From positions 1 to 48,643 of the forward strand of contig CAZYWT010000002.1 of the NCBI GenBank assembly GCA_964651635.1: DNA of 48,643 nt, read 5' to 3'. A program made the position numbers and the translations under genes. The notes beneath the pieces are model-generated. The model made no database searches, was not told where the DNA came from, and worked only from the letters and a program-made list of their open reading frames with translations. Every line of letters begins with the position of its first letter. The stretch's first letter is position 1. Shown piece by piece: positions 5,026 to 43,136 of the stretch. The DNA is from an uncultured Candidatus Saccharibacteria bacterium. Lineage in GTDB: Bacteria; Patescibacteriota; Minisyncoccia; Minisyncoccales; CG1-02-41-26.

Positions 5026-5029
5026 ATTT

Positions 5030-8688: not shown

Positions 8689-8692
8689 TTTT

Positions 8693-15325: not shown

Positions 15326-15353
15326 TTGACAACAAAGAGACTTAATATATAAT
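15326..15353 (+). promoter_or_regulatory. Near-consensus sigma-70-type promoter TTGACA-N16-TATAAT
   Basis: TTGACA lies at 15326-15331 and TATAAT at 15348-15353. The promoter sits about 60 nt upstream of the ATG at 15412. Confidence 0.6.
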
Positions 15354-15411
15354 TTTGCTATGAAATACAAGAATAAAAGGTCGGGGATTTTTGAAATTAA
15401 ATTATTAAATT

Positions 15412-20969: not shown

Positions 20970-21104
20970 ATGAGTTTTACTTATAAACCAAAAAAGAAAA
21001 AAAGAAAAAAATCCCACGGTTTTCTTAAAAGAAGCGCCAGTAAGTCGGGCGGGAAAATTTTATCAAAAAGAAGAAAAAAGGGAAGAAAAAAAATAACAGT
21101 TTAA
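20970..21104 (+). CDS. rpmH: 50S ribosomal protein L34
   Basis: 44 aa, reading MSFTYKPKKKKRKKSHGFLKRSASKSGGKILSKRRKKGRKKITV. It is absent from the ORF track because it is short and was translated by hand. The stop overlaps the rnpA start (TAATG). Confidence 0.9.
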   Translation: MSFTYKPKKKKRKKSHGFLKRSASKSGGKILSKRRKKGRKKITV

Positions 21105-22400: not shown

Positions 22401-22411
22401 CCGCCCAAAAA

Positions 22412-22457
22412 CCAGAGACCCGCTCTCTGGCAAATTGCCGGCGAGTCGGGTCCCTGG
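22412..22457. terminator. Degenerate copy of the palindromic repeat pair directly after the yidC stop
   Basis: The sequence CCAGAGACCCGCTCTCTGGCAA/TTGCCGGCGAGTCGGGTCCCTGG begins 12 nt after the yidC stop codon. Confidence 0.5.
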
Positions 22458-22527: not shown

Positions 22528-22980
22528 GTGTTGGATAAAAAAGAACAAATAAAAAAAGAAATAGAATATTTTTTTACTAAAATGAGTTTAAGCGAGACGC
22601 CTTGTAATTTTAATATAGAAAGGGAAAAAGTTTGCTTTGAAATAAAAACAGAAAACCCCAGAACATTGATAGGAAAAAGAGGCGAAGTTATTTCTAACAT
22701 TCAATTTATTTTAGGAAAAATAATACAAAAAAAAATGAAGCAAAGATTATTTATTGACTTTGATGTAAATGGATATAAAAAGAAAAAAGAACAATATCTT
22801 AAAGAATTGGCTCGCGACTACGCCCAAGAAGTTTCTTTTACCAAAAAAATTAAAACCCTTCCCTCTTTATCTTCTTACGAAAGGAGAATAATCCATCTTG
22901 CTCTCCAAAATAAAAACGGAGTGAAAACAGAGAGCCGCGGACAAGAGCCGAACAGAAAAATTATAATAAAACCTGTTTAA
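22528..22980 (+). CDS. jag: Jag/KhpB-type RNA-binding protein (KH + R3H)
   Basis: The KH region reads LIGKRGEVISNIQFILGKI and the R3H region reads LSSYERRIIHLALQNKNGVKTESRGQEPNRKIII. The start is uncertain. I chose GTG at 22528 because the upstream TTG-initiated extension runs through the repeat element. Confidence 0.75.
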   Translation: MLDKKEQIKKEIEYFFTKMSLSETPCNFNIEREKVCFEIKTENPRTLIGKRGEVISNIQFILGKIIQKKMKQRLFIDFDVNGYKKKKEQYLKELARDYAQEVSFTKKIKTLPSLSSYERRIIHLALQNKNGVKTESRGQEPNRKIIIKPV

Positions 22981-24761
22981 TAAATTTGCGGGACAACTAA
23001 AAACGCTCTTACAGATGGCGAGCCCAAAAATGAAATGCGGGAGAGAATAGAGCAATTTCCTATTTTATCATCGGTTAAATTGTAATCGCTCCTTTCAAAA
23101 ACGGAAGTGCATCTCCCCGTTCCTTTGCTACTCCACTCATCTATTGGATTTTGGGCTAAAAGCAGAAAACAATCTCCAATTAATTCCACCGACCTAATTT
23201 GTTCGTCCAAAAAGTTTATTCTCTTTGTCTCCGCCACCCCGTCGGGACTTTGTCGCCTTACTGCTGTTTCTCCCGGAATATTTACGGGGGTTAAATAAGA
23301 GAGTTGTAGAGATTCTTCGGGTAGCCAAATATTCGCATAATCCGCGTCTCCCTCGTCCAACTCTTTCGCTTCCGGTCGGTATATCAAGCATTCTCCCTTT
23401 AAGTCCTGTCTTGTGCAAAACTTTATTTCTTGGCAGGTGGACAAGGGTTGGTTGGAGATAAGATTTACCATAACCGAACTTATATTGTCCACGCTGCCGT
23501 AATCGTCCCCGTCCTTTATGTTTGTGAAGGTGTTCTTGTCGGGCAGAAAATCCCAATCTTCCACATTCCCCACCTCTTCCTTCACTCTCCTTTTTATTTC
23601 TCTTTCCTTCTCCCCAAAAAACAATCTGGCGTTCCCCGTAAAATCCCCCTTTTCAAATAAAACAGCGAAAAAGTCGTAAATTTCATCTAAATTGTTTATT
23701 TTTATGCGAGCAATTTTATTATTGTAGTTTTGGTAATACCCATCTTTTTCTATAAGCAAAGAATTCTCGTCTAATTTTCCGGCCCTCATAGAGAGATGGT
23801 CGGCGTCTTCTTCTTCCGTGTAAAAATGAACTCCGTTTCCAATATCCACCCTAATGGCGGAAAGCGGGGGATACTCCACCTCATTGGCCATTTTATAGTA
23901 ATCTTGTCCTTTACCGCCGGGCATGTAGAGCCGTTCTATCTCGTCATCAGGGAACTCTTTAGTAAAAGTTATATCAACAAACCAATTGTCTGCCGTAGTG
24001 CTTATTGAATGCGAATGTCCATTCTCGTCTATATATTTCTCTCCAGTTACTATAATCGGGTCGCCTTTATAATATTTTTTCGGGTAAAAATAGAAAAGAT
24101 AGTTGTCAAACACTCCTTCATCATTTTTTCTAAGTCCCAATCTTCGCAGCGAGGCAATCTTAAAACCAACCCGCGTTACAACGCAATCTGCCGAGTTGGA
24201 CGGCGAAACATCACCCTCGCATTCTTTGGCGTAGAATTTCCCGTCTCCCAAGGCGCGGGAGAAATCTTTTATCCGCCCGGAGATAGTAAACAATTTATCG
24301 CTCGCTTCTTTCATTTGTTCCACATCTTCATCAGACACCCCCCTCGTCTTGTCGTCGTCGGCTAAAACGGGAGCGTCATCTCTTACTATTGTGGGGGCTT
24401 TTTCTTTTATTTCAATTAAGGTGAGTTGGGGGTTGACAAGATATAGGATTAAATAAGAACCCAAAAGAATCGCCAATCCTAAAAATCCGTTTCCTATATC
24501 CGTTGTGGCTTTTCCTCTTTTTGTTGGGTTGCCGGCCGAAGTAATATACCCAACCCCCGATTTTATAAGAACTCCAAAAACGACAATAGCGCCCAAAATA
24601 ATAGCCCATTCCGTAAAGTATTTAACCATATTTCCAAGAGAACTATTGCCATGGAATTCTACCCCTCCCCCCGGCAAGACGGGATAAACTTGAGCGCTCA
24701 TCATAAGGGGAATTATTACCCCTATAGTTATTAAAACCAATAAACTTATTTTTATTTTCAT
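22977..24761 (-). CDS. T4SS pilin-module (VirB2/TrbC-like) fused to a ~470-aa extracellular domain
   Basis: It has a signal peptide (MKIKISLLVLITIGVIIPLMMSAQV) and two TM helices. The loop and tail read ITSAGNPTKRGKATTDIGNGFLGLAILLGSYLILYLVNPQ. The motif LGSYLIL-LVNPQ is shared with 30940-35979. The C-terminal part contains Cys and an FxxxxFxG motif. Confidence 0.6.
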   Translation of the reverse strand: MKIKISLLVLITIGVIIPLMMSAQVYPVLPGGGVEFHGNSSLGNMVKYFTEWAIILGAIVVFGVLIKSGVGYITSAGNPTKRGKATTDIGNGFLGLAILLGSYLILYLVNPQLTLIEIKEKAPTIVRDDAPVLADDDKTRGVSDEDVEQMKEASDKLFTISGRIKDFSRALGDGKFYAKECEGDVSPSNSADCVVTRVGFKIASLRRLGLRKNDEGVFDNYLFYFYPKKYYKGDPIIVTGEKYIDENGHSHSISTTADNWFVDITFTKEFPDDEIERLYMPGGKGQDYYKMANEVEYPPLSAIRVDIGNGVHFYTEEEDADHLSMRAGKLDENSLLIEKDGYYQNYNNKIARIKINNLDEIYDFFAVLFEKGDFTGNARLFFGEKEREIKRRVKEEVGNVEDWDFLPDKNTFTNIKDGDDYGSVDNISSVMVNLISNQPLSTCQEIKFCTRQDLKGECLIYRPEAKELDEGDADYANIWLPEESLQLSYLTPVNIPGETAVRRQSPDGVAETKRINFLDEQIRSVELIGDCFLLLAQNPIDEWSSKGTGRCTSVFERSDYNLTDDKIGNCSILSRISFLGSPSVRAFLVVPQIY

Positions 24762-24778
24762 ATACTTATTTTATGTTT

Positions 24779-25858
24779 TTATTGATAAATTTCAGGGTTG
24801 ATACTAAAATTATGGCAGCAAGCGTAATTATTAACGCTTCCTCCGCAAAACCAGTCCAAACATTCTGAGTAGGTTTTCCCGTGGCATAAACAGGCGGCGC
24901 ATTCTCCATGGAAAATCCCGTTTTCACAAGCGTCCTCGCACATGGTAAATCTTATATAATTTATTTTTGCCAACGGGGTGGCTGTTCCCGGATTAAACCT
25001 ACTTTCATTGCTTAAACATTCCACACATTCTTCCGTTGGCTCTTTGGCGCACTCGTTTCTACATTCATAAGAATAAATTCTTGGCGAATAATCTCCCCTC
25101 AAAAACGCTTTTCCGCAGACAACCGGCATTTTTATTATATTCTCTTCCGCTCCTTTCTCTAATTTTTCTATTTCTTTTTCATTTAAGACGCAGTTTTTGC
25201 TAACAAGAGACGGCTGGAGCCAACTTCTGGCGAGATTGAGCAATCTTCTGCTCTCTTCCGGTTTTGTGATTTTATCTCCCGCCGTTTCTCCTTGTTTTAT
25301 TAAATCAACCCTTACGGGAACGGTCTTATTTTCTAAAACATCTCTCACCGCTTCTCTGGCTCCTTTTATCCTATTGTAAAATCCTCTTAATTCTTCCACG
25401 CTTTCGGTTAAATCAAAACAGGGTTCTCCCATACATTCCTCTGGCTGACAATTAGGAAGCTTCATTTCTATCGGCAGAGGACCGCTAAAAAAGAAATCAA
25501 TATTAATGCGAGCTGTTAGTCCCTTATCAACTACTCTCGCCTGACAAAGAGAAAAATCGCAAATCGGCGATTCCGTCGGCTCCGTCTCTGTTTCTCCTTT
25601 TCTTGTCAGGGATTTTATTATTTCTTGAATGTATTCCGCGCCGCCCGCAACGCTTTCATGCATATCTTTAACCCTATCTATAAGAGAGCCCAAAAGTTCT
25701 TTTGTTTTTTTAATTGCAAGCCCGGTTGGTATCGGCTCGTCGCAAACAATTGCTTGGGCGTTTGCTCCAAAAGCGGAACTCAAAAGTCCCATTGTTATTA
25801 AAACAAGAACAGCTATTTTTAATTTATTTTTTCCATTCATATATTTATAATAAACCAA
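24779..25858 (-). CDS. Secreted cysteine-rich protein, unknown function
   Basis: A signal peptide KLKIAVLVLITMGLLSSAFGANAQA is present; the likelier start is the Met at 25840. The C-terminal third is packed with Cys clusters (ECRNEC, ECVECL, MCEDACENGIFHGECAACLCHG, WFCGG, YACCHNF). Confidence 0.7.
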   Translation of the reverse strand: MVYYKYMNGKNKLKIAVLVLITMGLLSSAFGANAQAIVCDEPIPTGLAIKKTKELLGSLIDRVKDMHESVAGGAEYIQEIIKSLTRKGETETEPTESPICDFSLCQARVVDKGLTARINIDFFFSGPLPIEMKLPNCQPEECMGEPCFDLTESVEELRGFYNRIKGAREAVRDVLENKTVPVRVDLIKQGETAGDKITKPEESRRLLNLARSWLQPSLVSKNCVLNEKEIEKLEKGAEENIIKMPVVCGKAFLRGDYSPRIYSYECRNECAKEPTEECVECLSNESRFNPGTATPLAKINYIRFTMCEDACENGIFHGECAACLCHGKTYSECLDWFCGGSVNNYACCHNFSINPEIYQ

Positions 25859-25876
25859 TTTTAACCTATTGCCAAA

Positions 25877-28800
25877 TTATCTTTTGGCGCATTTAACCTT
25901 AACAAATCCGTCTATATTTGCGTCTTCGCAAGTTAAGGCAAACGATTTCTCCCCTTGTCCTTCCAAGTCCTTTACCCCCGGAAGTTCTATTTGGCAAGAC
26001 GATTCTTTCCCCTCCAATTGATAATTTTTTGTATAAAAGTTTACATCTAACGAGTAGTTTTGTCCGCTGTAATTAACTTCGCAAACATTTTCTTCGCAAA
26101 AAACTTCCAATCCCGACGGGGCCTCGGGGCATTTTGTTTGAATATCTATCCATTCCCTATAATTCCATCTCTCGCAATCCAAAGAACAAAAATAGGGAAG
26201 AGAAGATATTGTGTAGGTCGCTCTTTCTCCCTCTTCTTTGTCGCATTTTACAGAATAAGATTTTTTAGAGCAATTTATCGCCAACTCGCCTTTTTCTATT
26301 TTTGTTTGGCAGTTTCCCGGGATAGTGGAATCTTCTTCTATTATTTCACAAGTGAGAGCCCCCGTATAAGTTATTATTTCTTCGTTGGCGTCTTGTCTTT
26401 CCGGAGGAGATATTTTATCCTCCAAATTTTGAGCCATTTTTTTCATCGGGTGTCTTAATATATAAACTAAATAACAATAAGGGCTGCTGAGCGGCTCAAC
26501 CGTGAGGGGCATATTAGAAATACAAAAAGGATACTTGCACAAACTTTGCCCGCAAAGGCAATTTTGGCTGGCAAAATGAACCGCCGTGGCAAGAGCCCAA
26601 ACGGCTTGCGCTTTTCTCTTTATTTTTTCTCCCTCATCCTTCAAAGATTTTATAGAATTATATTTTACAGGATAGATGTTAAATATATCGCGCAGTTTCA
26701 ACGCTCCTATTTTTATATCAAAATCTTTAACCCCTCTTCGGATTATATCTATTTGAGTTAAATTACTCCTTAAAACAGAAAAGTTAGACTCTATAATGGA
26801 GAACAAATTACCCACATCCGGGCAAACGGGACCGCCTCTGGGCGTTGTTATATCATTGCTTCCGGAAGCGGGAAGAGCGACGCAATCCAATGGTTGGAAG
26901 CTTAAACCTTCGCTATCCTCGTCTTTTTTGGCTCCTTCGGAAAGTTTTTCGGGGAGTTCTTTGAGCATTTTGATTAAAATCTGAGCATTCTCATAAGCTG
27001 TTTTGGCGTCGCTTATAGATGTTTCTATTCCGCCCATAAACAAAGAATAGGACCTAATTCCTAAAAGAATAGAGTAAATTGACATAACTCTGTTTAAGGG
27101 CTGTCTAATGTTAGTGTTTTCGAGGTTGCAAAAGAATTTTAATCTTTCAAGAGAGGCGGCGCTTTCTTCATCCCCGGAGAAAATATCTTTTTCTTGTCGC
27201 CAATTGTCGCCCCAGCCCAACCCCTCTCCTCTTATATGTTCAAGATGAAGGGCGATATCCTTACAAAGAGAAGGGTCTTGGGAGTGGAGGCAGTTTTCCT
27301 TCCAGGCCTCTTTTACGGCCACTATCTTGTCGCATTGCTCTTTTGCTCCCGCAAGTCCCGTCCACCCCTCGCAACTTTCTTTAAGTTCCATTATCTCTTC
27401 CTCTTCAAAAGGGCAAACATCCGACAAATAATCAGCTCTTTGGGTACAAGCGCTATAAAACGAGCGCTCGCTACCGCCCATATAAGTCATATTCCCCTCA
27501 CTAACGGCGCCGTCGCACACTTTAGAACTCCAAAAATGGACGGGGTCCTCACCCTGCTCTAAGTGGTAGGGGGCCTCCGGGTCGCATATTCCTCTAATTC
27601 TTTCTCCCAACCCCTCGTTTTCTGTTAAAAATGGTAAAAGTCGCTCCCCTGCCCATCTTAAATTGTTATTCTTATCAAGTTCTTTTACTCTTCTCTCGGC
27701 TTCCACAAGGGTTCTCTCCAGCGCTTCCACCCTTGAGCAAAGTTCCTCGTCTAATTTTTTGCTTCGCTTGTTATATTCAGGATAGATTTCCTCGTTACAT
27801 TTTTGAAGAGTTTCGCCGGGGTTGCTGCTCATCAAGACGGGGTCTATCGCTTGGCAACTCACAGCCATTTTATTGTTGCCCAATATCTTTGCCTCTAAAT
27901 AAGGGATGTCGTTTTGTCTCGTTTTCTCCAATTTTTCTTGAACGGTCTTTCCATTTGTTTTTTCTTTTAGGAAGTAGTAATCGGGATTTTCCGAAAGATT
28001 TAGGAGAGACGAAAATCCCGCCTTTAGCCCATATTCTTTATTTTCCAAATTAAAATAGCCGTTAAAAAGACTGTTAATAGCGCTGTATTTTTCATCCAAA
28101 AAAGAAACGGGGCTTTCCATAAATTTATCAAACCCCTCTCCCTCTATCCCCGCTTCTTCCATCCCCGCGTTGCCGGCGAAAATATCGTCCATTTTTGTTA
28201 TTTTAACTTCCGGAATATCCAAGGAAGGGTTTAGTTCTTTGGTTTTTTTTGCCACCTCGCTAATTTTCTCGGATAATTTTTCCAAAGAGAAAATGGATTT
28301 AGTAATCCGCTCCAATTCTCTAAAATCTTTATTAAAATTGTCTATTTCAAAACATCTAATTCTTTCCAGAAATCCATTAGGAGAGGCGGGGCAGTTATAG
28401 GGGCCGGTCGCTTCCCCTAAATTTGCCAAGAATTTATCTATATCGTCGGCTAAATTTTCCTCCGTTTGGTTTGCCAACCTTCGGGCGGCTTGAATGGCGC
28501 TGTAAAGTTCTTGGGACTTTTCTTTGGTGGCAAGGAGCAACTTTATATATTCATAAGCGTTTATATCCTCTCCCCTTTCCCAGATATTTACAATTTCCCG
28601 TATTATTTCTTTTATTTTTTCCAACTTATCGTTCTTCAATTTTAAGATATTGGAAGAAGGATTAGAGAGTTTTTTAATATCGTTTTGATATTTATTTATT
28701 TTTTGAACGGATAAGGGAGAATTTATAAAATAATTCAAAATTGGATGGGCTATTTTTGCTTTACTCCATGTGAGGTCGCCGAGGTTGCTCACGGAAAAAT

Positions 28801-30937: not shown

Positions 30938-30939
30938 AA

Positions 30940-33900: not shown

Positions 33901-35979
33901 TCGCGAAAAATCTTCCCAACATTTTTCCGGCTCCGAGAATTCTTTAAAGATATTAGGGTTGTTTTCCTTATAATCCCCGATAAGGTCAAGGGCTGGCTTG
34001 GTAATTTGGTAAGCGAGTTCCCAAACCATATTTTCTATTTGCTTGTCTATCCTCTCTTTTAGGTCTTTTAATTGGGCTTCCAAAAATTTATCTGTTTTTT
34101 CTAAGGGGATTAAAGCAAAATCGGGCAGAACTTGAGAGACCTTCTTTTTTAAGTTTTCTTTCAAAAAGGGAATTTGCTTGTCCAAAGATTTAGTGAGAGC
34201 GCCTTTCATCGCTATATCTAAAACATCCACTAAATCGTTTTCTATAATACTCTTTAATTCTTTAGAAAAATTAAAGTCCAAAACGGAACTTTTCAACGCT
34301 TTGGATATTTTCTCCGGCAGTTGCTCCATAATTGGAGCGGTGAGAGTGTTTGCCACCAAATTAGACAAAAAATCGGGCGGTATTTCTTTTTTCTCGCAGT
34401 TTTCTTTAACGCATTCCTCGTATTTTTCCTCGTCCTCGCTTTTCTCCGGGCATCCTTCTTCCATCTCTTCTTTTCTATAAGAAGCTAAACATTTTTCCAC
34501 ATAATATTTATCTGATTTTTGAACAAGGTCTTTGTTGAGCCGCTCTCTAAAAGATTGAGCGTATTCTTCCGAATTCATCTGAAAAACATCCAGTAAATAA
34601 TTATCTATCCCTTCATCTAAGGCTTTTTGGGTAAGGTTGGCGTAATAAGAAGTGTCTATCGCAAACTCCCCTTCTCCAAAAGCGTCCTCCAAACATTCCT
34701 CCGCCACTCGCTCTATCTCTTCAACTCCCACCCGCAAAAGAACGCTCACAAGGTTAATGGCTAAACTTTCCTCCATTGTTTCTTGGTTCTCCCCTTTTTG
34801 GCTTAAAGGGAAATACTTTCCGCTCAAGGGAGCGTATATGGTAAAATCATCGGGGGTTCCCGCTTCAAAGAGAGTTTGTTCTTTTTGGGAAGGATGTTTT
34901 TGAATGTCTATATCTTCGTATTGATTTCTCCAATTTTCCAACTCTCTATAATAATCAGTTTGAGTATATACATTTATTAAATTTGTGTCTAAAAATTCAG
35001 ACACTTTTAACTTTAGCGTTTTCTCTAAAAATCCGATTTCCTCGCTTGATATTTTGTAATTTAGCACCTTTAATCCCCCCCACTCCCCTATTAAATTTTT
35101 TCTTTTCTCTCTCGCTAGTTCCAGGTTGCAATTTTCCGAGTTTCCGCATCCCTCTCCTTCGGCGTCGCACTGATTTTCGCAAGTTTCTTCCTCGTTGCTC
35201 ATTAGCGCTTTTCCCTCGGCGCAAACTCCCTTGCTCTCTTTCGTTGCTATGTGGGATTGCGACATTCCGCAACCGCAATTTTCTAAAATAGCGTTGATTT
35301 CTTCGGAAATTTCGATTACGCTCAACATCCTGCCTTCCGCTTCCAAAAAAGGGATTTCGGCTCTAAAAAATTCGCTTCTCTCATCGCCGCTCTCGGTGAG
35401 GGCTTTTTCTACATATTCTTTTACTGCTTCATCGTTCATGCTTGCGAGCGTCATTTTTTTATCTAAATAGTCCAACGCTTCATCTATTTGCTCTCCGCCG
35501 GAAGAGTAAGCCAAAATTGCCTTCTCGCCCGATGACGCTATCTCGGGCAAAACGGGGGGCGGGATTTTTTTGAACTCTGTTTGTAAAACTAAAATCTGCG
35601 GGTTTACAAGAGACAGGATTAAATAAGAGCCCAAAACAATCACAAATCCCAAAAGAGCGTTTTGCATTCTTTGGTTGGCGATATTTCGCAGAGTTGGTTT
35701 GACGCCGGAGAGAAGATAAAGAACCCCGCCGGCTATAAACACGGCTAACACTATTCCGGTGGCTATAAAATAGAAAAGAATTAAAAAGTAGCTTCCGTAG
35801 GCAGACAACCTTTCATCCACCTTTAACGCGCCATCGCTTATTTTTTCCTCTATTGTGTTGGGGGTATCTACCCCGGGTAATTTAGGATAAGAAACATTCA
35901 AAGCGTTGGCGGAAAATATAGGCAAAAATAAGGCGAAAATTAAAAAAATAAGAAATAAAATATTTAGTTTTTTAGGCAT
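30940..35979 (-). CDS. Giant (1679 aa) protein: N-terminal VirB2/TrbC-type pilin module fused to a ~1540-aa Cys-rich extension
   Basis: It has a signal peptide (...LPIFSANA) and TM1 (YFLILFYFIATGIVLAVFIAGGVLYLL). The loop is SGVKPTLRNIANQRMQN and TM2 is ALLGFVIVLGSYLILSLVNPQ. The C-terminal tail is rich in CC/CxxC (CCNLGAALVC, FCCYDESCNIC, LCCQGSYYNEETDQCC). Confidence 0.7.
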   Translation of the reverse strand: MPKKLNILFLIFLIFALFLPIFSANALNVSYPKLPGVDTPNTIEEKISDGALKVDERLSAYGSYFLILFYFIATGIVLAVFIAGGVLYLLSGVKPTLRNIANQRMQNALLGFVIVLGSYLILSLVNPQILVLQTEFKKIPPPVLPEIASSGEKAILAYSSGGEQIDEALDYLDKKMTLASMNDEAVKEYVEKALTESGDERSEFFRAEIPFLEAEGRMLSVIEISEEINAILENCGCGMSQSHIATKESKGVCAEGKALMSNEEETCENQCDAEGEGCGNSENCNLELAREKRKNLIGEWGGLKVLNYKISSEEIGFLEKTLKLKVSEFLDTNLINVYTQTDYYRELENWRNQYEDIDIQKHPSQKEQTLFEAGTPDDFTIYAPLSGKYFPLSQKGENQETMEESLAINLVSVLLRVGVEEIERVAEECLEDAFGEGEFAIDTSYYANLTQKALDEGIDNYLLDVFQMNSEEYAQSFRERLNKDLVQKSDKYYVEKCLASYRKEEMEEGCPEKSEDEEKYEECVKENCEKKEIPPDFLSNLVANTLTAPIMEQLPEKISKALKSSVLDFNFSKELKSIIENDLVDVLDIAMKGALTKSLDKQIPFLKENLKKKVSQVLPDFALIPLEKTDKFLEAQLKDLKERIDKQIENMVWELAYQITKPALDLIGDYKENNPNIFKEFSEPEKCWEDFSRGYFYNYTNERCYKATPREISDFTSGRGIANALVRSKKDGDVGAFESDFTQEALCRGAGYCWDQIGGEVCKSCKNLNLGGLAPTRENLARWGKGAVEFLVNFGEEFMVALLRTAAHTLTKYAQVWVEDSILKPFAPYLFQLSTFQEEIHNFLNSSVREALPAQISAYLGSSVEQILSDICAKKEAGGSYTIYNEKIEVSEEVGKAACGIDRELHQSLLDQLSENGKFGEKVATALNTEIMKLFDQVFKNADIDKHLNKTVAQLIWPELNLSPEVMRKLLKATPKELICGEISFIDYDCKEWSFDLTAGLLPYPSDPAGEKGYCYFLNYACQNPLKGWDRAQGLILSDFINTYCQQLEIKKEKLCSEQGISPCVLRDLTLSEEKKDLIDRGEDACAALIENSAAYTIFNDQIEHNFGDIEKKDKEKSQEIYLWLFATFTDKRVQGEIQKLALDRGMGREEMLHIATQADAMEEGQIKKLERGLQSFTAWFSSGGTVEEALTTPCLGAVEGLTGSPCEGSNMLAKNIYWLLGSGACSLVERTYLAEEKEGDVGENLKNLFITCRILTQTLEESLGIEKRLINYIKDPYNTIFSLMWTKLENYERPEPLNNLLDALFRGKISSLLMRVKAKDVGGPGWSEEQKQEFAKQANKLGEALSKDPISYLLNGKSLIYMIFKKMGKENWLQKSMDVSKWKEIQEVLAKTPTDIAAHYLTDPLNKEWALFRSPIDYIAETKIPELNNPYIDTIGKAAGITKFVYEIYGKWEDIKDSVNEAVDSVQGTIRSSLDTAFIEYPTRGVNWLIQSLGMGATDEIGDDIADRLAGKCKDATPEEKNNESCQGEKEIYNKTTKQCCNLGAALVCKDRCREIETSESCDIEKGEERDERDDGVFCCYDESCNICRQTYAVARAKNAEPKAKCEREGDERKEKTTEDEEEMVLCCQGSYYNEETDQCCVDLLTCISNKLTDFLKMLTLTIKTGLPINSNSPIFSD

Positions 35980-36391
35980 ATTTTTTCATTGCGTTTTTCA
36001 TTCCTATGGTCCATCCGAACCAAAGGGAACCCACAATGGGCAAGGGCTCCAGCAAAAAACTCCAGCCCTTTAAGGGGACTATAAATCTTTGCGTTTCTAT
36101 GGAAGCGACAATGGTTAAAGACAAAAATGCCACAAGGTCGAGAAAAAAAGACAGGATTGTTCCAACTACCCCTACATAGGGTATTAGTTGGATTATTTCG
36201 GCGGGGATTTCCAGCAAATCAAATATAAAAGCGAGGGTTATGGCTATTACGGGTCCATCTTCTCTTAATCGCGACGATTTGTCTTTTTTTGCCAAACTGC
36301 TCGCTTCTTTCCAACGCTCTTTTCCCTTGCCATAGAGTTCTTTTCCTTTTTGTTTGGCTTTTTGGTAAACTTGGCTTAATCCGGGACTCAT
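35972..36391 (-). CDS. Small membrane protein of the T4SS-like operon, unknown function
   Basis: 139 aa with a basic N-terminus followed by 3 predicted TM helices. It overlaps both neighbours (4 nt and 8 nt). Confidence 0.6.
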   Translation of the reverse strand: MSPGLSQVYQKAKQKGKELYGKGKERWKEASSLAKKDKSSRLREDGPVIAITLAFIFDLLEIPAEIIQLIPYVGVVGTILSFFLDLVAFLSLTIVASIETQRFIVPLKGWSFLLEPLPIVGSLWFGWTIGMKNAMKKYA

Positions 36392-38178: not shown

Positions 38179-38181
38179 AAT

Positions 38182-38844
38182 TTAATCCAAAAGTTCGGGC
38201 AATATCTCCGGATAATACCCAAATTCCGATTGTCTTGGGTGGTGGAGTGCCCAAAAAAGTTCAATGAGTTCCGGGGTGGTGAGAGGGACGGCGTTTAATC
38301 CGCATCGCCGCAGGCCTATGGCGGCATATTCCATCCTTTGCCAAAGTTGGTCGCGAGCTCTTTGAAAATTTTCTTTGCCTAATCCAAAGTATTTATCTTC
38401 TCCGCCTCCTCCCTTGAAAATGTTTTGGAGAAGTCCTCCGCTGACCCCTATTGTTTCATTTAGGGTAAAAGGGACTACCACGAAAAACTCTTTTTTCATA
38501 ATCGTTCCTTTTTTAATCAACTTTTCCACAAATTTTCTATAGCCGCTTATTTGAACTTTCAAAAGTTCCGATTTTTGCTTTTCTTCCAACTCTTTTAGTT
38601 TGTCAAAATAGCCGGTGATATTTAAGCGGCGGGATTGAACTATTATTTGAGTGGAAAAATCAAGAGAGTTTAAGAAACTTTGGAATTGATAAGTAGTGGC
38701 TTTTTGCTCATCTTCGGATTTTAGGTCAAAATTCACGGAAGAGGTGAGTAAAACTCCTCGCAGGGACTTGTTTTTTAGAATTAGAGTTCCGTCTTTTATC
38801 CCTTCAAATTTTAAGAAATTTTGGGCGGGGTTGTTACTAAACAT
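38182..38844 (-). CDS. Stand-alone protein resembling the non-ATPase N-terminal region of Gram-positive-type VirB4 proteins
   Basis: 220 aa with no P-loop. The pattern FEGIKDGTLILKNKSLRGVLLTSSVNFDLKSEDEQKATTYQFQSFLNSLDFSTQIIVQSRRLNI matches my recollection of PrgJ/Orf16-type VirB4 N-termini. This is inference. Confidence 0.4.
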   Translation of the reverse strand: MFSNNPAQNFLKFEGIKDGTLILKNKSLRGVLLTSSVNFDLKSEDEQKATTYQFQSFLNSLDFSTQIIVQSRRLNITGYFDKLKELEEKQKSELLKVQISGYRKFVEKLIKKGTIMKKEFFVVVPFTLNETIGVSGGLLQNIFKGGGGEDKYFGLGKENFQRARDQLWQRMEYAAIGLRRCGLNAVPLTTPELIELFWALHHPRQSEFGYYPEILPELLD

Positions 38845-38847
38845 AAA

Positions 38848-39264
38848 TTATTGTTTGTTTTGTTTCCACTCTAATTGAGAGGAAAGTTCTTTTATGCGAC
38901 TGCCGGGAGAAATTTTTAAGGGTTCTCGTTCTTTTTCTTCCTCTTTGGGTTTTTGATATTTTATTCTCAAAGAGTGAGGCGGAACATCTTTCTTTTCCCA
39001 AAAATATCTTTTGGCGGAAGTAAAAAAACTAAAATATTGAGCGATAAGTTGAGGTATGGTGTAGCCCTCTACTCGGACAAAAAGAAAAAGCAAGACAACC
39101 GTAACGGTGGCGAAAAAGATAACATAAAAAGCGGTCGGCGGGACTATATAATATAGCCCAAAAAGGACACCTCCCACTATCCCCAAAATAATTAACTGGC
39201 GAAAAGTGAGAAGATTAAAAAACTTTGTTTGATGCTCTAAGAATTTTGGAACTTTATATCGCAT
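38848..39264 (-). CDS. PrgI-family (VirB3-like) T4SS membrane protein
   Basis: The N-terminus MRYKVPKFLEHQTKFFNLLTFRQLIILGIVGG is followed by two TM helices. It lies directly upstream of the VirB4 genes, which is the canonical VirB3-VirB4 order. Confidence 0.7.
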   Translation of the reverse strand: MRYKVPKFLEHQTKFFNLLTFRQLIILGIVGGVLFGLYYIVPPTAFYVIFFATVTVVLLFLFVRVEGYTIPQLIAQYFSFFTSAKRYFWEKKDVPPHSLRIKYQKPKEEEKEREPLKISPGSRIKELSSQLEWKQNKQ

Positions 39265-39342
39265 TGTTATATTTTATCACGAAACAATTAAAATGGGCAA
39301 GTGGCCGGTAAGTGGTGGGTAGGTGGCGAACAAGTGGCGGGC
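39265..39342 (-). promoter_or_regulatory. Putative promoter (TTGCCC-N18-TGATAAAAT) abutting four 11-bp-phased AAGTGG repeats
   Basis: The minus-strand extended -10 element is at 39271-39279 and the -35 at 39295-39300. Only 6 nt separate the -10 from the ATG. On the plus strand, AAGTGG/AGGTGG occurs at 39299, 39310, 39321 and 39332. Confidence 0.4.
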
Positions 39343-39353
39343 AAAAACAAAAC

Positions 39354-39390
39354 GGGCGGTTGTCCCGATGTTATATCGGGACAACCGCCC
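39354..39390 (-). terminator. Intrinsic terminator (16-bp perfect stem) after the 349-aa gene
   Basis: The hairpin is GGGCGGTTGTCCCGAT-gttat-ATCGGGACAACCGCCC. On the minus strand it is followed by GTTTTGTTTTT, and on the plus strand by TTTATTT, so it may act in both directions. Confidence 0.8.
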
Positions 39391-39453
39391 TTTATTTCTA
39401 AAAGAGGCGCAATAAAAAAGCCCGGGTAGTTAATGTCCCGGGCTATAGGGCGG

Positions 39454-40503
39454 TTATTTGGATTTTTTCTTAAAAATTTTGAAAAAACCCTTGGCAAGAT
39501 TGCCAATACAACCGCCAATTGTGGTTCCCGCTTTCATCTCCTTCATCTCCTTCATCTCCGTATTCAGTTTTCTGTTTTTGCGTTCCAGCCGCTTCCTTTT
39601 CTGGGCAAGTTTTTCCGCTTCCATTTCCATTTCCACAATCCGAGACCTTAATTGGTCTCTTTTTCTCCGCGCCTTTCGCAGGGCGGAGGCCGCCTCTCTT
39701 CTGCGGCTGGCGGAAATTTTTTCCGCTTCCGCTTCCGCTCCTTGAACGAGCTCCAAAGAGCGTTCCAATACGAACCGTATTGTCCGAGCTGATTCGCTCG
39801 GACTCGGCCCGCTTCCGCTTCCATCTCCGCTTTCTCCACTTTCGTCTCCATCTTCTAACGCTTTTTCTTTCTTTTTTTCTTTTTTTTCTTTCTTTTTTTC
39901 TTTCTTTTTTTCTTTTTTTTCTTTCTTTTTTTCTTTTTTTTCTTTTTTTTTTTTTTCTTTTTCCTTGTTCCATTCCCCATCCCCCTTCGGAAATGGCGAC
40001 CATTTCTTCCATGTGGTCGTCTTCCGGTAGAATCTCGGCCACTGTTTTTTAACATAAGAATAACAGAGCCAGTAACCTACGGGAATCCCCGCGTAGAGTC
40101 CAAATACAGCGAAAAAATAATCCGCAGTTAGGACATCCGCCGAAACCCACACGGCGAGAATGGCCGCTACCGCGGTCCTGGCGCCGACCCACTCTACAAT
40201 TTCTCGAATGACTCGGCCAGGTCCCCTCCCTGTCCCGCCGAATATGTTCACGAATCCTTCGTGAACAGCGAGGGGAATGGCGAGGACTGTTGCCAGCCCC
40301 GCCAGAATATGCCTACCCCACTTCGTGTTATTTAACACGAGCAGGGAGACGAGGATAGCGACAACGATAGTAAATAATCGTATGTCGCTATCCAACAGAA
40401 TGATTCCGGGTACTGTTCTAAATAAATAGAAATAATAGTACCCGGAACTTGCCAGTGTTGCCGTAAGCAATAGCCCCGCCACGACATTTACAAGTTTCCT
40501 CAT
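39454..40503 (-). CDS. Polytopic membrane protein with poly-(K/E) tract and coiled-coil tail; GC-rich cassette
   Basis: 349 aa. The N-terminal ~170 aa form about 5 TM helices encoded by visibly GC-rich DNA. They are followed by KEKEKKKKEKKEKKKEKKEKKKEKKKEKKEKKKEK, a Gly/Ser/Asp linker, a coiled coil and the tail GTTIGGCIGNLAKGFFKIF. Confidence 0.7.
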   Translation of the reverse strand: MRKLVNVVAGLLLTATLASSGYYYFYLFRTVPGIILLDSDIRLFTIVVAILVSLLVLNNTKWGRHILAGLATVLAIPLAVHEGFVNIFGGTGRGPGRVIREIVEWVGARTAVAAILAVWVSADVLTADYFFAVFGLYAGIPVGYWLCYSYVKKQWPRFYRKTTTWKKWSPFPKGDGEWNKEKEKKKKEKKEKKKEKKEKKKEKKKEKKEKKKEKALEDGDESGESGDGSGSGPSPSESARTIRFVLERSLELVQGAEAEAEKISASRRREAASALRKARRKRDQLRSRIVEMEMEAEKLAQKRKRLERKNRKLNTEMKEMKEMKAGTTIGGCIGNLAKGFFKIFKKKSK

Positions 40504-40590
40504 TTTTTAACCTCCTTTTTTAATGAACTTTCTTACCTATATTATACCACAAACACACTCTATTTGTCAATGCCGCCATTGCCAAAAAAT

Positions 40591-40644
40591 CAGAGACCCG
40601 ACCTCTGGCAAACCTCTGGCAAATTGCCAGAGGTCGGGTCTCTG
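40591..40644 (-). terminator. Palindromic-repeat pair acting as a probable intrinsic terminator after the 118-aa gene
   Basis: The perfect 21-bp arms are CAGAGACCCGACCTCTGGCAA and TTGCCAGAGGTCGGGTCTCTG, with a 12-nt loop. The minus strand continues with ATTTTTTGG. Confidence 0.7.
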
Positions 40645-40665
40645 GCGATCTTTAATAATTTAGAG

Positions 40666-41022
40666 TTAGTCGATTTTTTCTCGGTAAATATCGTTAAGTT
40701 TGGGAGGAGATTTTTTGCTCTTTTCTTCTTTCTCTCCCATTGTTTTTGCTCTGGGTATAAGTTTATTTTCCAATTCTTGGGCTATTTTTTCCGCTTTTTC
40801 CAGTGTTGTGTTTAGTTCCAATTTTATAGAGACCGGGAACTCTTCTTTGGATAAATCTCCTTTCCCCCTATAACTAACCAGTTCCGCTAAAATTTGGATG
40901 TTGGGCTTTCCCCCCTTTTTAACTTTGCGAAAAAACTCTTTATTATCCTCGCTTAATCCTTCCTTTTCTAAAATTTCCTCTATTATATCCGATGAATTTT
41001 CGGGAAATATTATTTCTGCCAT
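40666..41022 (-). CDS. Small acidic/charged cytoplasmic protein, unknown function
   Basis: 118 aa with no TM helix. It lies 11 nt downstream of the VirB6-like gene on the same strand. Confidence 0.6.
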   Translation of the reverse strand: MAEIIFPENSSDIIEEILEKEGLSEDNKEFFRKVKKGGKPNIQILAELVSYRGKGDLSKEEFPVSIKLELNTTLEKAEKIAQELENKLIPRAKTMGEKEEKSKKSPPKLNDIYREKID

Positions 41023-41033
41023 AATTTAATTTA

Positions 41034-43136
41034 TTAAGCCGCTTTTTTTCTCCCCCCCGAACTCCCGCTGGAAGAATTTCCGCCCGTTTTTGTTTTTCCG
41101 TGTTTTTGAGCGCCGCGAGAACTACTTTGTCCTCCCTTTTTTGTGGTCCTTCCGCTCGCGCCCGTTGTTTTTTGCGAAACTGGCGGCCCGCCGAGCAAGG
41201 CGTTCATTTTTTCTCTTATAGCTTCCTCTTCTTCTTTGGTTATAGTTTCATCTCCTATTCTTTTCTCGTAATCCCTCCATATAGGGGACTGTTTTATGGC
41301 TTCTTTTTGGGCTTTTGCCCCCATCGTTCCAAATATCTTTAATTTATTTTTATTTAAGCGCTTGGCGATGCTGTTTAATTTTAAGATGCTCGGGGGCAAA
41401 TCCAATAAACTTCTCCCCGACATTTTTTCCACCTCTTCTCCTATCATTTTATCTTTTACCGCTCTTCTCGCTTTTACCCCGGCGTTATGTTCCGGGGTTC
41501 CCGAATCCATTAAATTTTGTTTTTCTTCCTTTACCCTTCTGCCATATTCTTTCCCTTTCACAAAAGGAGAAAGGTCTGGCCTTTTTGAGGAGAGTGAGCT
41601 CAAGTCCCCTCCAAGCCCTTGGACTTCTCTGATAATCTTTCTCTCTCTTTTTTGGTCGCCCAAATCAAACTCCCCTCTTTTTGTAAGTGTTTCCGCCAGC
41701 GCTATTCTTTCTTTTTTGGCTCGGGTTGTGGCGGCTGGCCCTTTCAACTTTTCCTTAATTGTTTGCGACTCCATAGAGTTGACGGCGCCTCGCATGTCTT
41801 GGTCGGGCGCCCATTTTTTAGTTCTTCTTGTGTAATATTTAGAGGACGAAACGCCCAGCATTTTACTTCCCGTTTCCGCTATTGCTTGCCTTCCTTTTTC
41901 TCTCCCCGCCCTTGTGACGACGCCACGGAAAGCGCCCTTAAGTCCTTCTTTTTTAGAGCCGGTTTCCTGAAACCCCTCTCGGAAGCCGGCCACCGCGCCC
42001 CCTATGGCGCCGGTTGCGCCGCTGGCGGCTTTTTTGCCCCTCTTGGTCGTAAATTTACCCGCCTTGGCGGCTCCCGTTTTAAGTCCTTTTGTTGCCATTC
42101 CGGTGGCTTTTGCCAATGTCGCCACTCCCTTGCTCATATAAACGGCTCCAAAAGCCATAAGCCCCAGCGCCATGCCATACAGAAAGAGGATGGGCAAAAC
42201 ATCCCCCCCTTCCTCGGGATATTCAGTCATATTAACTTGTTCTATCATTGCTTGGGCTAAATAAATCAAAAAAGCGTATCCGACCACTTTGATTACATAC
42301 TTAAAAAACTCATTCCACCACTGCGTAAAATATTTTCTTGTCTGGTCGAAGATATAGGCGAAAAGAGCCAGCGGAGAAATAATAGTTAAAAGTGTGATGG
42401 CGATATGCCTCACCACAAAGAGATAAGCGAATTGCAACAAAACCTTTACCAAAAAGACCGTAAACCCGCCTAAAAGAATTATGCTTATTATATTTTTTAT
42501 CATTTTTGCCCCGCCCCCCGCACTTGCCATATCCTTCCAATCTATTTCTTCGGCGGCTAAATCAAAGGCGGTTTCAAATCTTTCCCACTTAATTTGAGAT
42601 GTAAAAAACCTTGTGGCGGCGTTTGCTACATCCACAAACAACCCGCAAATTGCCGGGGTAAAGTTTATAATAAGGGCTATTATAATTAGCAAAGAAAAGG
42701 ATTTTTGGGCGCCAAACTTGTTTTTATCAAGGGCTGTAAGTATCCCGATAATCGCCAGTCCCAAAATAAACAAAATGTTTACAATATCTCTTATAAGGGT
42801 CCAGCCGATTTTTAGGACGGGGTTATTGGCGGGGTTGGTGCTGGAAAAATTACTCAAAACCAAAATATCGCTCACCGCCCATGTCGAAATTCCCACCGTC
42901 AAATGAACTACCGCTTTTAAGACCCTCATTACGGCCCATTCCAAAGCGCTGCCTATACCCTCTAAAAACTTATTCGTTCCCTTGGTTATTAATTTATTTA
43001 TTATTTCTCTCTCCCCTACACCTGTATAAAAGTAAGGCACTCGAGCGCTGGTTTTAGCGGGGATAAAAATAAAAGAAAAACCGATTAAAACTATAAAAAA
43101 GGAAATTAAGGATTTTTGGAAAATTGTTCTCTTCAT
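41034..43136 (-). CDS. VirB6/TrbL-like polytopic membrane protein with a long basic Gly/Lys/Ser/Thr-rich C-terminal tail
   Basis: 700 aa. A signal or TM segment (SLISFFIVLIGFSFIFIPAKTSA) is followed by about 6 further TM helices up to about aa 345. A ~350-aa hydrophilic tail then ends in GGNSSSGSSGGRKKAA. The family assignment rests on architecture and context. Confidence 0.5.
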   Translation of the reverse strand: MKRTIFQKSLISFFIVLIGFSFIFIPAKTSARVPYFYTGVGEREIINKLITKGTNKFLEGIGSALEWAVMRVLKAVVHLTVGISTWAVSDILVLSNFSSTNPANNPVLKIGWTLIRDIVNILFILGLAIIGILTALDKNKFGAQKSFSLLIIIALIINFTPAICGLFVDVANAATRFFTSQIKWERFETAFDLAAEEIDWKDMASAGGGAKMIKNIISIILLGGFTVFLVKVLLQFAYLFVVRHIAITLLTIISPLALFAYIFDQTRKYFTQWWNEFFKYVIKVVGYAFLIYLAQAMIEQVNMTEYPEEGGDVLPILFLYGMALGLMAFGAVYMSKGVATLAKATGMATKGLKTGAAKAGKFTTKRGKKAASGATGAIGGAVAGFREGFQETGSKKEGLKGAFRGVVTRAGREKGRQAIAETGSKMLGVSSSKYYTRRTKKWAPDQDMRGAVNSMESQTIKEKLKGPAATTRAKKERIALAETLTKRGEFDLGDQKRERKIIREVQGLGGDLSSLSSKRPDLSPFVKGKEYGRRVKEEKQNLMDSGTPEHNAGVKARRAVKDKMIGEEVEKMSGRSLLDLPPSILKLNSIAKRLNKNKLKIFGTMGAKAQKEAIKQSPIWRDYEKRIGDETITKEEEEAIREKMNALLGGPPVSQKTTGASGRTTKKGGQSSSRGAQKHGKTKTGGNSSSGSSGGRKKAA

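Follow-up and report, generated by a model that had tools for sequence, protein, structure and literature searches.

Eleven minus-strand open reading frames (ORFs) tile positions 22977-43136 of contig CAZYWT010000002.1, from an uncultured bacterium of the Patescibacteriota (assembly GCA_964651635.1), and this block, placed in the slot between jag and rsmA, is very likely a type IV secretion system (T4SS) of the Patescibacteria type. We hold it to be rather probable that the block constitutes a chromosomally fixed, origin-proximal T4SS that serves surface or host contact and not conjugation. The Patescibacteria T4SS descends from a conjugation machine of monoderm bacteria, of the mating pair formation class FATA (MPF-FATA), which is no longer tied to DNA-transfer genes, and in the Paceibacteria-type lineage concerned here the predicted VirB3-TrsD-VirB4 operon runs on into four Sec-exported proteins: two giants (giant 1 and giant 2), a 359-aa cysteine-rich protein and a 594-aa pilin fusion. 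The giants are quite likely functional partners of the T4SS, and it is proposed more tentatively that the pilin modules found in this locus polymerize and display the domains attached to them. The window considered throughout was the whole stretch of 48.6 kb, and family scans (Pfam, NCBIfam) covered its ORFs of at least 90 aa. The ORF list reproduced the eleven genes and the coordinates reported in a previous reading of the same DNA made without database searches (the sequence-only reading).

A considerable part of this picture has been described in other Patescibacteria. Wang et al. 2023 (PMC10633639) characterized the T4SS of Southlakia epibionticum (SEML1_0006-0019), which was most like Gram-positive conjugative systems, had no recognisable coupling or relaxase proteins and was essential for epibiotic growth, its pilin genes being essential as well. 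Quinonero-Coronel et al. 2025 (PMC12102498) placed the VirB4 proteins of Patescibacteria in a clade beside MPF-FATA, with TrsD as their commonest partner, found PrgI, VirB6 and PF18895 pilins near virB4, relaxases being rare, and located the T4SS of Paceibacteria and Microgenomatia near dnaA, dnaN, rnpA, ksgA and rpmH; a review from 2025 restates this picture (PMC12857230). Moreover, T4SS pilins were among the highest-expressed genes of unknown function in Paceibacteria parasitising methanogens (PMC10936435), MdbA-like disulfide oxidoreductases are enriched in the Candidate Phyla Radiation (bioRxiv 335083), and cryo-electron tomography of another Patescibacterium revealed a tube or 'lance' of ~8.6 nm, with a barbed tip, between parasite and host (PMC11880426). 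The core of the present block, an origin-proximal, relaxase-less and MPF-FATA-derived T4SS with TrsD, PrgI, VirB4, VirB6 and PF18895 pilins, is already published. In this respect, the sequence-only reading was right to propose a chromosomal, relaxase-less, T4SS-derived apparatus for host interaction in an ultra-small genome, yet wrong to take the architecture as uncharacterised, since its core is described in PMC10633639, PMC12102498 and PMC12857230.

The new part is the downstream half, composed of giants and bimodular pilin fusions in the virB4 operon, of which no description was found in the literature. Long or fused pilins are not mentioned in the text of PMC12102498, whose table gives PF18895 matches without lengths. 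The T4SS of Patescibacteria is essential in the one species tested, and the present locus offers concrete candidates for the part that touches the host: in one lineage, the VirB4 operon appears hard-wired to four large, fast-evolving and cysteine-scaffolded surface proteins, two of them with a pilin module.

The predicted secretion engine

Profile and synteny evidence, on which the identification of the parts is based, showed a predicted membrane engine composed of an extended VirB6-like channel, VirB3/PrgI, TrsD, VirB4 and a small conserved membrane protein. The comparison included the related contigs L001-L012, of which L011 and L012 are metagenomic and L003 is a metagenome-assembled genome of Yanofskybacteria; the synteny of L002-L008 was read from ORF lists and one Pfam scan. 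The VirB3, VirB4 and VirB6 assignments made in the sequence-only reading exceeded curated thresholds in profile searches.

The 596-aa protein is assigned by profile to the VirB4-class ATPases of the monoderm (MPF-FATA/CD1110) type. It matched the NF045971 conju_CD1110 equivalog with 362.4 bits against a cutoff of 325, over profile positions 179-734 of 752, and PF19044 with 85.9 bits, its best PDB match was the Thermoanaerobacter VirB4 4AG5 (E 2e-44), and the Walker A (AKAGSGKS) and Walker B (ILLVDEAW) motifs previously read in it were both located. Its nearest relatives, 43-76% identical, came mostly from Patescibacteria records (Yanofskybacteria, Paceibacterota and 'Saccharibacteria'), the exception being L006, titled Gammaproteobacteria, while matches from Firmicutes and Mycoplasma reached 24-26% identity only. 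As a separate observation, the VirB4 orthologue of L001 (6206-9997) is 1263 aa long, its ATPase being interrupted by an intein that carries a LAGLIDADG endonuclease (PF14890, PF14528).

The 138-aa VirB3-like protein has two adjacent transmembrane (TM) helices, matched PF12666 PrgI with 35.9 bits against a cutoff of 27, and aligned with positions 11-117 of NF045975, the model of the Mycoplasma VirB3-VirB4 fusion. The soluble 220-aa protein is predicted to be a stand-alone TrsD/TraC-like protein, homologous to the domain at the very N-terminus of monoderm VirB4: it matched NCBIfam NF041427 TrsD (E 4e-5) and aligned with positions 11-80 of NF045971 and 102-233 of NF045975, all three below cutoff, and its orthologues in L001 and L011, 64-67% identical, carry PF26593 TraC-like. 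A comparison of this protein with PDB sequences gave no meaningful match. VirB3, TrsD and VirB4 jointly span what the integrative and conjugative elements (ICEs) of Mycoplasma encode as one fused VirB3-VirB4 protein. The 700-aa VirB6-like protein matched PF04610 TrbL over aa 149-329 (34.2 bits against a cutoff of 25.9), and its hydropathy profile placed ~8 hydrophobic segments within aa 1-331 and, after them, a hydrophilic tail of 370 aa that is basic and Gly/Lys-rich.

Two small proteins complete the set. The 139-aa protein has at least two TM segments, and its gene overlaps virB4 by 4 nt and the giant 1 gene by 8 nt. Its position directly 3′ of virB4 is conserved in five relatives, with a weak shared motif; it aligned with the same-position proteins of L010, L003, L002 and L005, with E..P..G..(G)WT in common, identity between the L009 and L010 copies is 41%, and L012 has a 118-aa gene in the same position. 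The 118-aa protein of the window, for its part, is soluble, both acidic and basic, and predicted to be co-transcribed with virB6. It had no Pfam or NCBIfam match and is weakly homologous (27% over 99 aa, E 1e-4) to a 151-aa protein encoded just 5′ of virB3 in L011, which in turn resembles a 286-aa protein at the same position in L003; it is regarded, from these comparisons, as a probable positionally conserved accessory protein. The machine had been described as a minimal VirB3/VirB4/VirB6 set, which does not hold, given that TrsD and two conserved small proteins, one with TM segments and one soluble, are encoded there too; the genes at 38182-38844 and 35972-36391, left unidentified at that time, are the TrsD-like gene and the gene of the conserved small membrane protein.

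Pilin fusions and giant secreted proteins

The genes from virB3 (39264) down to the 594-aa gene (22977) are tightly packed, the successive junctions being +3, +3, -4, -8, +2, +18 and +17 nt (negative values denote overlaps), and the stop of the last gene shares 4 nt with the convergent stop of jag (22977-22980), exactly as previously read, with a range from an 8-nt overlap to an 18-nt gap. This packing, together with the conservation of the arrangement in other contigs, supported the earlier placement of the giants in the same unit as virB4. The four secreted-protein genes cover 12,966 nt together. The chance of a 1680-codon open frame at the present base composition is P ~1e-50 and orthologues of all four large secreted-protein ORFs exist elsewhere, and for both reasons the large ORFs are considered real genes. 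The earlier estimate of ~13 kb encoding four secreted, Cys-rich proteins was correct as to size and as to three of them, with 49 (giant 1), 56 (giant 2) and 21 (359-aa protein) cysteines, and incorrect for the 594-aa protein, which has 8 (1.3%).

Sequence comparisons supported the earlier proposal that two of these proteins, giant 1 and the 594-aa protein, open with a VirB2-type pilin module. Their N-termini are homologous (29% identity over 170 aa, E 6e-13) and both comprise a signal peptide, a YP.LPG motif, two hydrophobic helices separated by a basic loop with 3 basic residues, and an NPQ end, YP..PG and NPQ being invariant in the N-terminal alignment. Against the PF18895 cutoff of 26.6 bits, giant 1 scored 15.3 bits and the 594-aa protein 21.2 bits (E 3e-4). 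The family of the latter gathers 26 cluster representatives of 515-790 aa that match the 594-aa protein over at least 63%, and PF18895 was matched by 26/26 of the aligned homologues (best 1.5e-8); PF18895 is also present in the existing annotation of P0023, of a 509-aa protein in L011 and of a 537-aa protein in L012. A search of PDB sequences with the pilin profile recovered chance matches only (e.g., heliorhodopsin) and no solved VirB2/TraA pilin. The DNA coding for the second TM segment is 82% identical between the two fusions over 66 nt (24427-24492 versus 35597-35662), with proteins ~29% identical overall, which suggests gene conversion or strong constraint at this site.

The pilin-module profile was searched exhaustively against 1.84 billion cluster representatives; 22,000 proteins were retrieved with E<=1e-3, of which 2,536 had E<=1e-10. 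The 149 best matches comprised 24 proteins of at least 1200 aa, 113 of 300-1200 aa and 12 shorter than 300 aa. Many PF18895 'VirB2 pilins' (137/149 of the best matches being >300 aa) are long, multi-domain proteins, and therefore the published pilin counts and 'pilin arrays' need rereading. In addition, tandem modules, 3-6 per polypeptide of 560-790 aa, were observed in the relatives P0005, P0006, P0007, P0047, P0049 and P0151, which by their sequence appear to be 'poly-pilin' proteins and not pilin gene arrays.

Beyond the modules, the four proteins differ in their composition. In giant 1, a signal peptide and the two-helix module (aa ~26-130, nt ~35590-35904) are followed by a Cys-rich ectodomain of ~1550 aa. 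It was matched over at least 66% of its length by 18 cluster representatives of 1687-2381 aa with 50-90 Cys, and an alignment of 23 sequences of the family has at least 20 invariant cysteines, most of its invariant columns being Cys. The AlphaFold2 (AF2) model of aa 130-1320 consisted mostly of long helices and was unreliable (pLDDT 58, pTM 0.27), and Foldseek returned nothing below E 0.5 with it; the ectodomain is predicted to be mostly alpha-helical and disulfide-rich, and no fold is claimed. Giant 2 has a signal peptide, no pilin module and, by hydropathy, no further TM segment. Its Pfam scan gave no match, and a Cys-rich domain of ~150 aa is duplicated internally (aa ~380-532 and ~1540-1684; z=12 versus shuffles). 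The 359-aa protein, which also has a signal peptide, found no match in Pfam or NCBIfam.

In the 594-aa protein, the signal peptide and the VirB2-like hairpin (aa 42-109) are joined by a disordered linker to a beta-rich ectodomain. Its AF2 model, built from the 26-sequence alignment, had a pLDDT of 74.6, reaching ~90 over aa 350-594, and placed helices at 42-74 and 79-109. The only significant Foldseek match of this model was gammaE-crystallin (1zie, E 5e-5, TM-score 0.62 on the target), followed by a bacterial beta-gamma-crystallin domain (3hzb, E 0.08), and the ectodomain models as beta-gamma-crystallin-like Greek-key domains. In line with this model, Crystall_3 was matched by 3/26 homologues and Crystall by one, all with weak E values, and the window protein itself had no Pfam crystallin match.

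The large domains are predicted to lie outside the cytoplasm on account of the signal peptides, the invariant cysteines and the crystallin-like fold. With the basic loop facing the cytoplasm, both ends of the hairpin would lie outside and the large domains would be extracellular. Neither an enzymatic or toxin domain (Pfam, NCBIfam) nor a sortase LPXTG motif at the C-terminal end was found in the four secreted proteins.

Conservation and divergence among relatives

The eight-gene order VirB3-TrsD-VirB4-(TM)-giant 1-giant 2-Cys-rich-pilin fusion has collinear counterparts in L011 and L012; L001, L009 and L010 show as much of it as their contigs span. In L012, genes for PrgI, a TraC-like protein, VirB4 and proteins of 118, 1693, 1366, 346 and 537 aa, the last one a T4SS_pilin, follow each other and converge with jag; L011 preserves the same order, with proteins of 2080, 1676 and 536 aa followed by two pilin fusions. 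The giant 1 gene lies directly 3′ of virB4 or of the small TM gene in L001, L010, L011 and L012, and after the small TM gene in L009, where virB4 would lie beyond the end of the short contig. Giant 2 orthologues come directly after giant 1 in L001, L009, L010, L011 and L012, and orthologues of the 594-aa gene end the operon in L011 and L012.

The proteins of this order have changed at different rates. Between the window and L011, identity was 74% for VirB4, 67% for TrsD, 41% for VirB3 and 33% for VirB6 (a 797-aa counterpart by position in L011), and 55%, 47% and 45% for the neighbouring M23/LysM hydrolase, ComM and RsmA, respectively, VirB4 and TrsD being better conserved than the flanking rsmA and comM. 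The secreted proteins retained 25% (giant 1), 26-31% (giant 2), 28% (the 359-aa protein, over 350 aa and with E 1e-38, to a 536-aa, 27-Cys protein at the same position) and 29% (the 594-aa pilin fusion). From these alignments, the predicted exposed proteins diverge much faster than the engine, with their cysteines kept.

The sequence-only reading had regarded the apparatus as dedicated to displaying or exporting giant proteins. Display is plausible; the dedication did not stand because L002, L003 and L005, which are closer by VirB4, have the same core without giants. The giants would rather be a lineage-specific add-on to the core machine, as this distribution indicates. As an additional observation, L003, without giants, encodes just 5′ of virB6 a 465-aa secreted protein with a Cys-rich C-terminus (4443-5840), and such loci may more widely have Cys-rich secreted partners.

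A fixed chromosomal position

On one side, the block is flanked by jag, yidC, yidD, rnpA and rpmH (20970-21104), with dnaA and dnaN just beyond, at a block-to-dnaA distance of 2.4 kb; on the other, by rsmA (43166-43972). The rsmA...jag-yidC-rnpA-dnaA slot is common to L001, L003, L011 and L012. In L003, whose VirB4 is 55% identical, the order is rsmA ... VirB6-x-VirB3-TrsD-VirB4-TM ... jag-yidC-rnpA-dnaA-dnaN, while comM-M23/LysM-rsmA precede the block in L011 and jag-yidC-rnpA-rpmH-dnaA follow it in L001 and L012. As this slot is kept in distant relatives, the block is considered a fixed chromosomal locus and not an ICE. The T4SS operon converges with jag in the window and likewise in L003 and L012, and is codirectional with it in L001, and therefore the block was inverted at least once within the same slot.

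In agreement with the earlier reading, which had excluded a conjugative element from the gene content, none of the scanned window ORFs had a relaxase domain (oriT was not searched for), a type IV coupling protein (T4CP, VirD4/TcpA), VirB11 or an integrase, and no att-like pair of direct or inverted repeats was found at the block boundaries. The window contains no tRNA or Rfam feature and therefore no tRNA-type integration site. A VirB11 identity was considered for the PilB-like ATPase encoded at 8693-9985, the sole secretion-type ATPase among the other window ORFs, and rejected, with scores of 431 bits for GspE, 408 for PilB and 54 for VirB11. This GspE/PilB-type ATPase has 430 aa, shorter than a typical PilB, is encoded directly 3′ of an unannotated 325-aa ORF (7711-9985 for both) at ~13 kb from the T4SS, and probably belongs to the type IV pilus (T4P) system on which Patescibacteria also depend.

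Comparison with known systems

The T4SS loci published for Patescibacteria are, like the present one, chromosomal, close to dnaA, dnaN, rpmH, rnpA and ksgA, with an M23/LysM hydrolase nearby, and encode an MPF-FATA-type VirB4, TrsD, PrgI/VirB3, VirB6 and VirB2-like pilins of PF18895, with no relaxase or T4CP near. They are described with arrays of 2-11 pilin genes, of sizes not mentioned, whereas no stand-alone pilin is present in the window. Unlike them, the present locus has bimodular pilins of 594 and 1679 aa and two more large Cys-rich proteins in the virB4 operon, and no VirB8-like or VirB1-like gene inside the block. Concerning the latter, VirB1-like proteins with M23/LysM domains occur in Patescibacteria T4SS loci (PMC12102498), and the LysM/M23 endopeptidase gene beyond rsmA, a conserved neighbour, is a tentative candidate for a wall-remodelling (VirB1-like) helper.

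The conjugative MPF-FATA systems of monoderms, such as Trs of pGO1/pSK41, Prg of pCF10, CD1110 of Clostridioides difficile CTn2 and the Mycoplasma ICE, share with the block the NF045971 VirB4, a PrgI-type VirB3 and a VirB6-like channel. TrsD and VirB4 are encoded separately, as in pGO1, and the pilin module is weakly similar to the Mycoplasma ICE pilin-like protein NF045849. In contrast to these conjugative systems, the present one lacks a relaxase, a T4CP, a PrgK/TrsG-type hydrolase, a PrgL/VirB8-like protein and an LPXTG adhesin, and it has a fixed chromosomal position and pilin-type proteins.

The VirB2/TraA/TrbC pilins of diderms resemble the modules described here in their signal peptide, two hydrophobic helices, short basic loop, linkage to VirB4 and Pfam T4SS_pilin assignment. 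However, the canonical pilins are single modules of ~70-120 aa, in comparison with proteins of 594 and 1679 aa whose ectodomains reach 480 and 1550 aa; no sequence links the present modules to solved pilins, and their polymerisation is putative.

Proposed mode of action and competing explanations

According to the favoured explanation, Sec would export the four proteins, which would become oxidized outside the membrane. The hairpins would first sit in the membrane with an N-out/C-out topology and the large domains pointing outward. In conjugative systems (Agrobacterium VirB4, R388 T4SS), it is VirB4 that pulls VirB2-type pilins out of the membrane, and here it would pass the hairpins on to a short fibre, tube or stalk anchored by the T4SS, in which the crystallin-like ectodomain, the giant helical disulfide-rich ectodomain and the two unanchored partners would form an exposed tip or sheath touching the host. 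The apparatus would serve attachment to, or exchange with, the host cell. A pilin module joined to a bulky C-terminal adhesive or lectin-type domain on a filament is known from the modular T4P pilins PilB and PilC of Streptococcus sanguinis; their pilin fold and machine are unrelated, and they provide an analogy for the working mode, not for membership.

Several points weigh against this explanation. The function of the Patescibacteria T4SS has been called 'completely unknown' (PMC11665869), and a T4CP or a relaxase could be encoded elsewhere in the genome. The operon structure is deduced from spacing and consensus scans, the giant 1 model is unreliable and has no structural match, and both pilin modules are under the PF18895 gathering cutoff, with no solved pilin matched. 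Moreover, no small stand-alone pilin able to build the fibre shaft was found in the window, the relatives L002, L003 and L005 carry the core without giants, and an appendage of 480-1550 aa per subunit is hard to fit in a VirB2-type helical polymer. As such bulky appendages fit poorly in a helical polymer, the hairpins may be plain anchors.

The rival that survives best, although we still judge it unlikely, extends this last point: the two-helix module would do no more than anchor proteins in the membrane, and might tag them for docking on VirB6/VirB4, and the four proteins would be ordinary adhesins exported by Sec and spanning the wall, or envelope proteins, co-expressed with a T4SS that moves something else. 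It accommodates the lack of a stand-alone pilin in the window, the size of the ectodomains, the relatives with a core and no giants, and the absence of a pilin module from giant 2 and the 359-aa protein, but it leaves aside that the module is PF18895-like in 26/26 family members and conserved far beyond the domains attached to it: YP..PG and NPQ do not vary, and the paralogues share 82% DNA identity. Furthermore, the position of the fusion genes after virB4 is the same in six contigs, and generic anchors would need none of this.

A bolder version of the favoured explanation, to which we assign a slightly lower likelihood than to plain anchoring, takes the pilin fusions as true subunits of a T4SS-built tube, which would be the first modular VirB2-type pilins and would correspond to the ~8.6-nm lance of PMC11880426. 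The shaft would be made of, or decorated by, the crystallin-like 594-aa pilin, with giant 1, giant 2 and the 359-aa protein as a disulfide-bonded tip. If true, it would give the lance a molecular identity and would explain why the T4SS is essential for epibiotic growth; the link of that lance to the present locus is speculation.

Two-step secretion as in Ptl of Bordetella, a system whose toxin is Sec-exported and already disulfide-bonded when the T4SS acts on it, is improbable here and partly overlaps with the favoured explanation. The effectors or toxins pushed through the wall or into the host would be the Sec-exported giants, with giant 2 and the 359-aa protein as a minimum. The window has no T4CP, and T4SSs without one exist in Ptl and in Brucella VirB (PMC12102498, PMC12857230); these are, unlike the present system, diderm MPF-T machines with a VirB7/9/10 core and unrelated cargo. 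Signal peptides, conserved cysteines, the predicted co-transcription with virB4 and a surface-protein identity of ~25-30% against 74% for VirB4, as expected for host-facing effectors, agree with secretion, which is opposed by the lack of any enzymatic or toxin domain found in the four proteins, by a monoderm cell without an outer membrane to cross and by the hairpins that tether two of the four proteins to the membrane.

A role in DNA transfer or uptake, either conjugation with a relaxase and a T4CP encoded elsewhere or a ComB-like import of DNA, is very improbable. VirB4 is closest to conjugative CD1110-type ATPases, and a gene of the ComM/YifB family, which is linked to transformation, lies 2 kb away as a conserved neighbour; however, this gene is a generic one, kept among other housekeeping genes. 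In Patescibacteria, T4CP homologues mostly lie at a distance from virB4, and the ABY1 loci stand beside comF, recG and radA (PMC12102498), and DNA uptake has been proposed as a role (PMC11665869), but relaxases were detected in just 103 Patescibacteria genomes, rarely near virB4 (PMC12102498), and in Southlakia the T4SS is essential while comEC (hence competence) and a distant T4CP homologue are not. Besides, DNA transfer or uptake gives no role to the four large Cys-rich surface proteins.

An ordinary or decaying ICE is hardly credible, for the G+C content (GC) of the block (~0.41 against 0.30-0.33 in the adjacent dnaA-jag region) and its inversion relative to jag between the window and L001 are outweighed by the lack of integrase, relaxase, T4CP and att repeats in the window, by a similar GC in the housekeeping genes beyond rsmA (0.38-0.43), by the same slot in relatives whose VirB4 is just 55-74% identical, and by a conservation of VirB4 and TrsD above that of rsmA and comM.

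Transcription units and other features of the window

The features of the locus are presented in Table 1. From gene spacing and signal scans, the block is likely organized in ~3 units: virB6 with the 118-aa gene, the 349-aa gene alone, and the 16.3-kb run from virB3 to the 594-aa gene. After the 118-aa gene there is a perfect 21-bp inverted repeat with a T-run (40644-40591), and upstream of the 349-aa gene a full-consensus promoter-like site, TTGACA-18-TG-TATAAT (40570-40541). The 349-aa gene is followed by a CCCGGG...CCCGGG hairpin with a T-run (~39441-39410) and by a second hairpin with a G+C-rich stem of 16/17 bp (39390-39354), then GTTTTGTTTT. A further promoter-like site, TTGCCC-18-TG-TAAAAT, a consensus match only, stands 7 nt 5′ of the virB3 start and is the putative start of the 16.3-kb operon. 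The single 16-kb operon proposed earlier for 39264-22977 was supported by its tight junctions and by the hairpins and promoter-like site 5′ of virB3.

Table 1. Predicted features of the T4SS block and its hydrolase neighbour, with the basis of each assignment.
Feature	Coordinates	Strand	Basis
VirB6/TrbL-like protein, 700 aa	41034..43136	-	PF04610
Small soluble protein, 118 aa	40666..41022	-	No family match; weak homologues by position
Intergenic control region	40541..40644	-	Hairpin and promoter-like site
Membrane/coiled-coil-like protein, 349 aa	39454..40503	-	Hydropathy; sub-threshold Pfam/NCBIfam matches only
Two terminator-like hairpins	39354..39441	-	3′ of the 349-aa gene
Promoter-like site	39271..39300	-	Consensus match only
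VirB3/PrgI-like protein, 138 aa	38848..39264	-	PF12666
TrsD/TraC-like protein, 220 aa	38182..38844	-	NF041427 below cutoff; orthologues with PF26593
VirB4-class ATPase, 596 aa	36388..38178	-	NF045971, PF19044, 4AG5
Small membrane protein, 139 aa	35972..36391	-	Position conserved 3′ of virB4
Giant 1, pilin fusion, 1679 aa	30940..35979	-	Weak PF18895; N-terminal alignment
Giant 2, 1686 aa	25877..30937	-	Signal peptide, 56 Cys; no Pfam match
Secreted Cys-rich protein, 359 aa	24779..25858	-	Signal peptide, 21 Cys; no family match
Bimodular pilin fusion, 594 aa	22977..24761	-	PF18895 sub-cutoff; AF2/Foldseek
LysM and M23 peptidoglycan endopeptidase, outside the block	44304..45350	+	Pfam LysM x2, Peptidase_M23

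The 349-aa protein begins with a membrane domain (~3-5 hydrophobic segments) and ends in a region resembling a coiled coil; it also has a (K/E)n repeat, and its gene presents the highest GC in the block (0.46). The repeat is encoded by a long imperfect 9/12-nt purine repeat (39841-39972). No orthologue was found in L011, where an opposite-strand Band_7 gene fills the slot, and the 349-aa gene, which relatives do not conserve, may have been inserted in this lineage at a site between virB6 and virB3 that varies.

A hairpin element of ~26 nt, AAAAAyCAGAGACCCGnyCTCTGrCA, was observed in three intergenic regions, at 20774-20822 (dnaA-rpmH), 22407-22437 (yidC-jag) and 40585-40644 (between the 118-aa and 349-aa genes), the third copy being the perfect 21-bp inverted repeat mentioned above. 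By its sequence, it looks like a small dispersed terminator or a repetitive extragenic palindromic (REP)-like element.

Besides the GspE/PilB-type ATPase, the family scans of the other window ORFs identified housekeeping genes only, namely holA, fpg, a histidine kinase and two response regulators, polA, tsaE, ruvABC-region genes and yebC, as well as those for PBP1A, dnaN, dnaA, rsmA, the M23/LysM hydrolase, the YifB/ComM-family ATPase and nusA. Between a 143-aa ORF and the PBP1A gene there is an AT-rich stretch of 1.15 kb without any ORF of at least 90 aa (14254-15410). It contains a perfect (100%) tandem duplication of 267 nt in 1.8 copies (14799-15281), for which a recent event, an error of assembly or a region related to the origin could account. 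The PBP1A gene, as annotated, has at its 5′ end an array of 7.6 copies of a 21-nt repeat (15472-15633), which encodes an Arg/Lys-rich N-terminus in the PBP1A frame and poly-Glu/Asp in another, the PBP1A start codon being putative.

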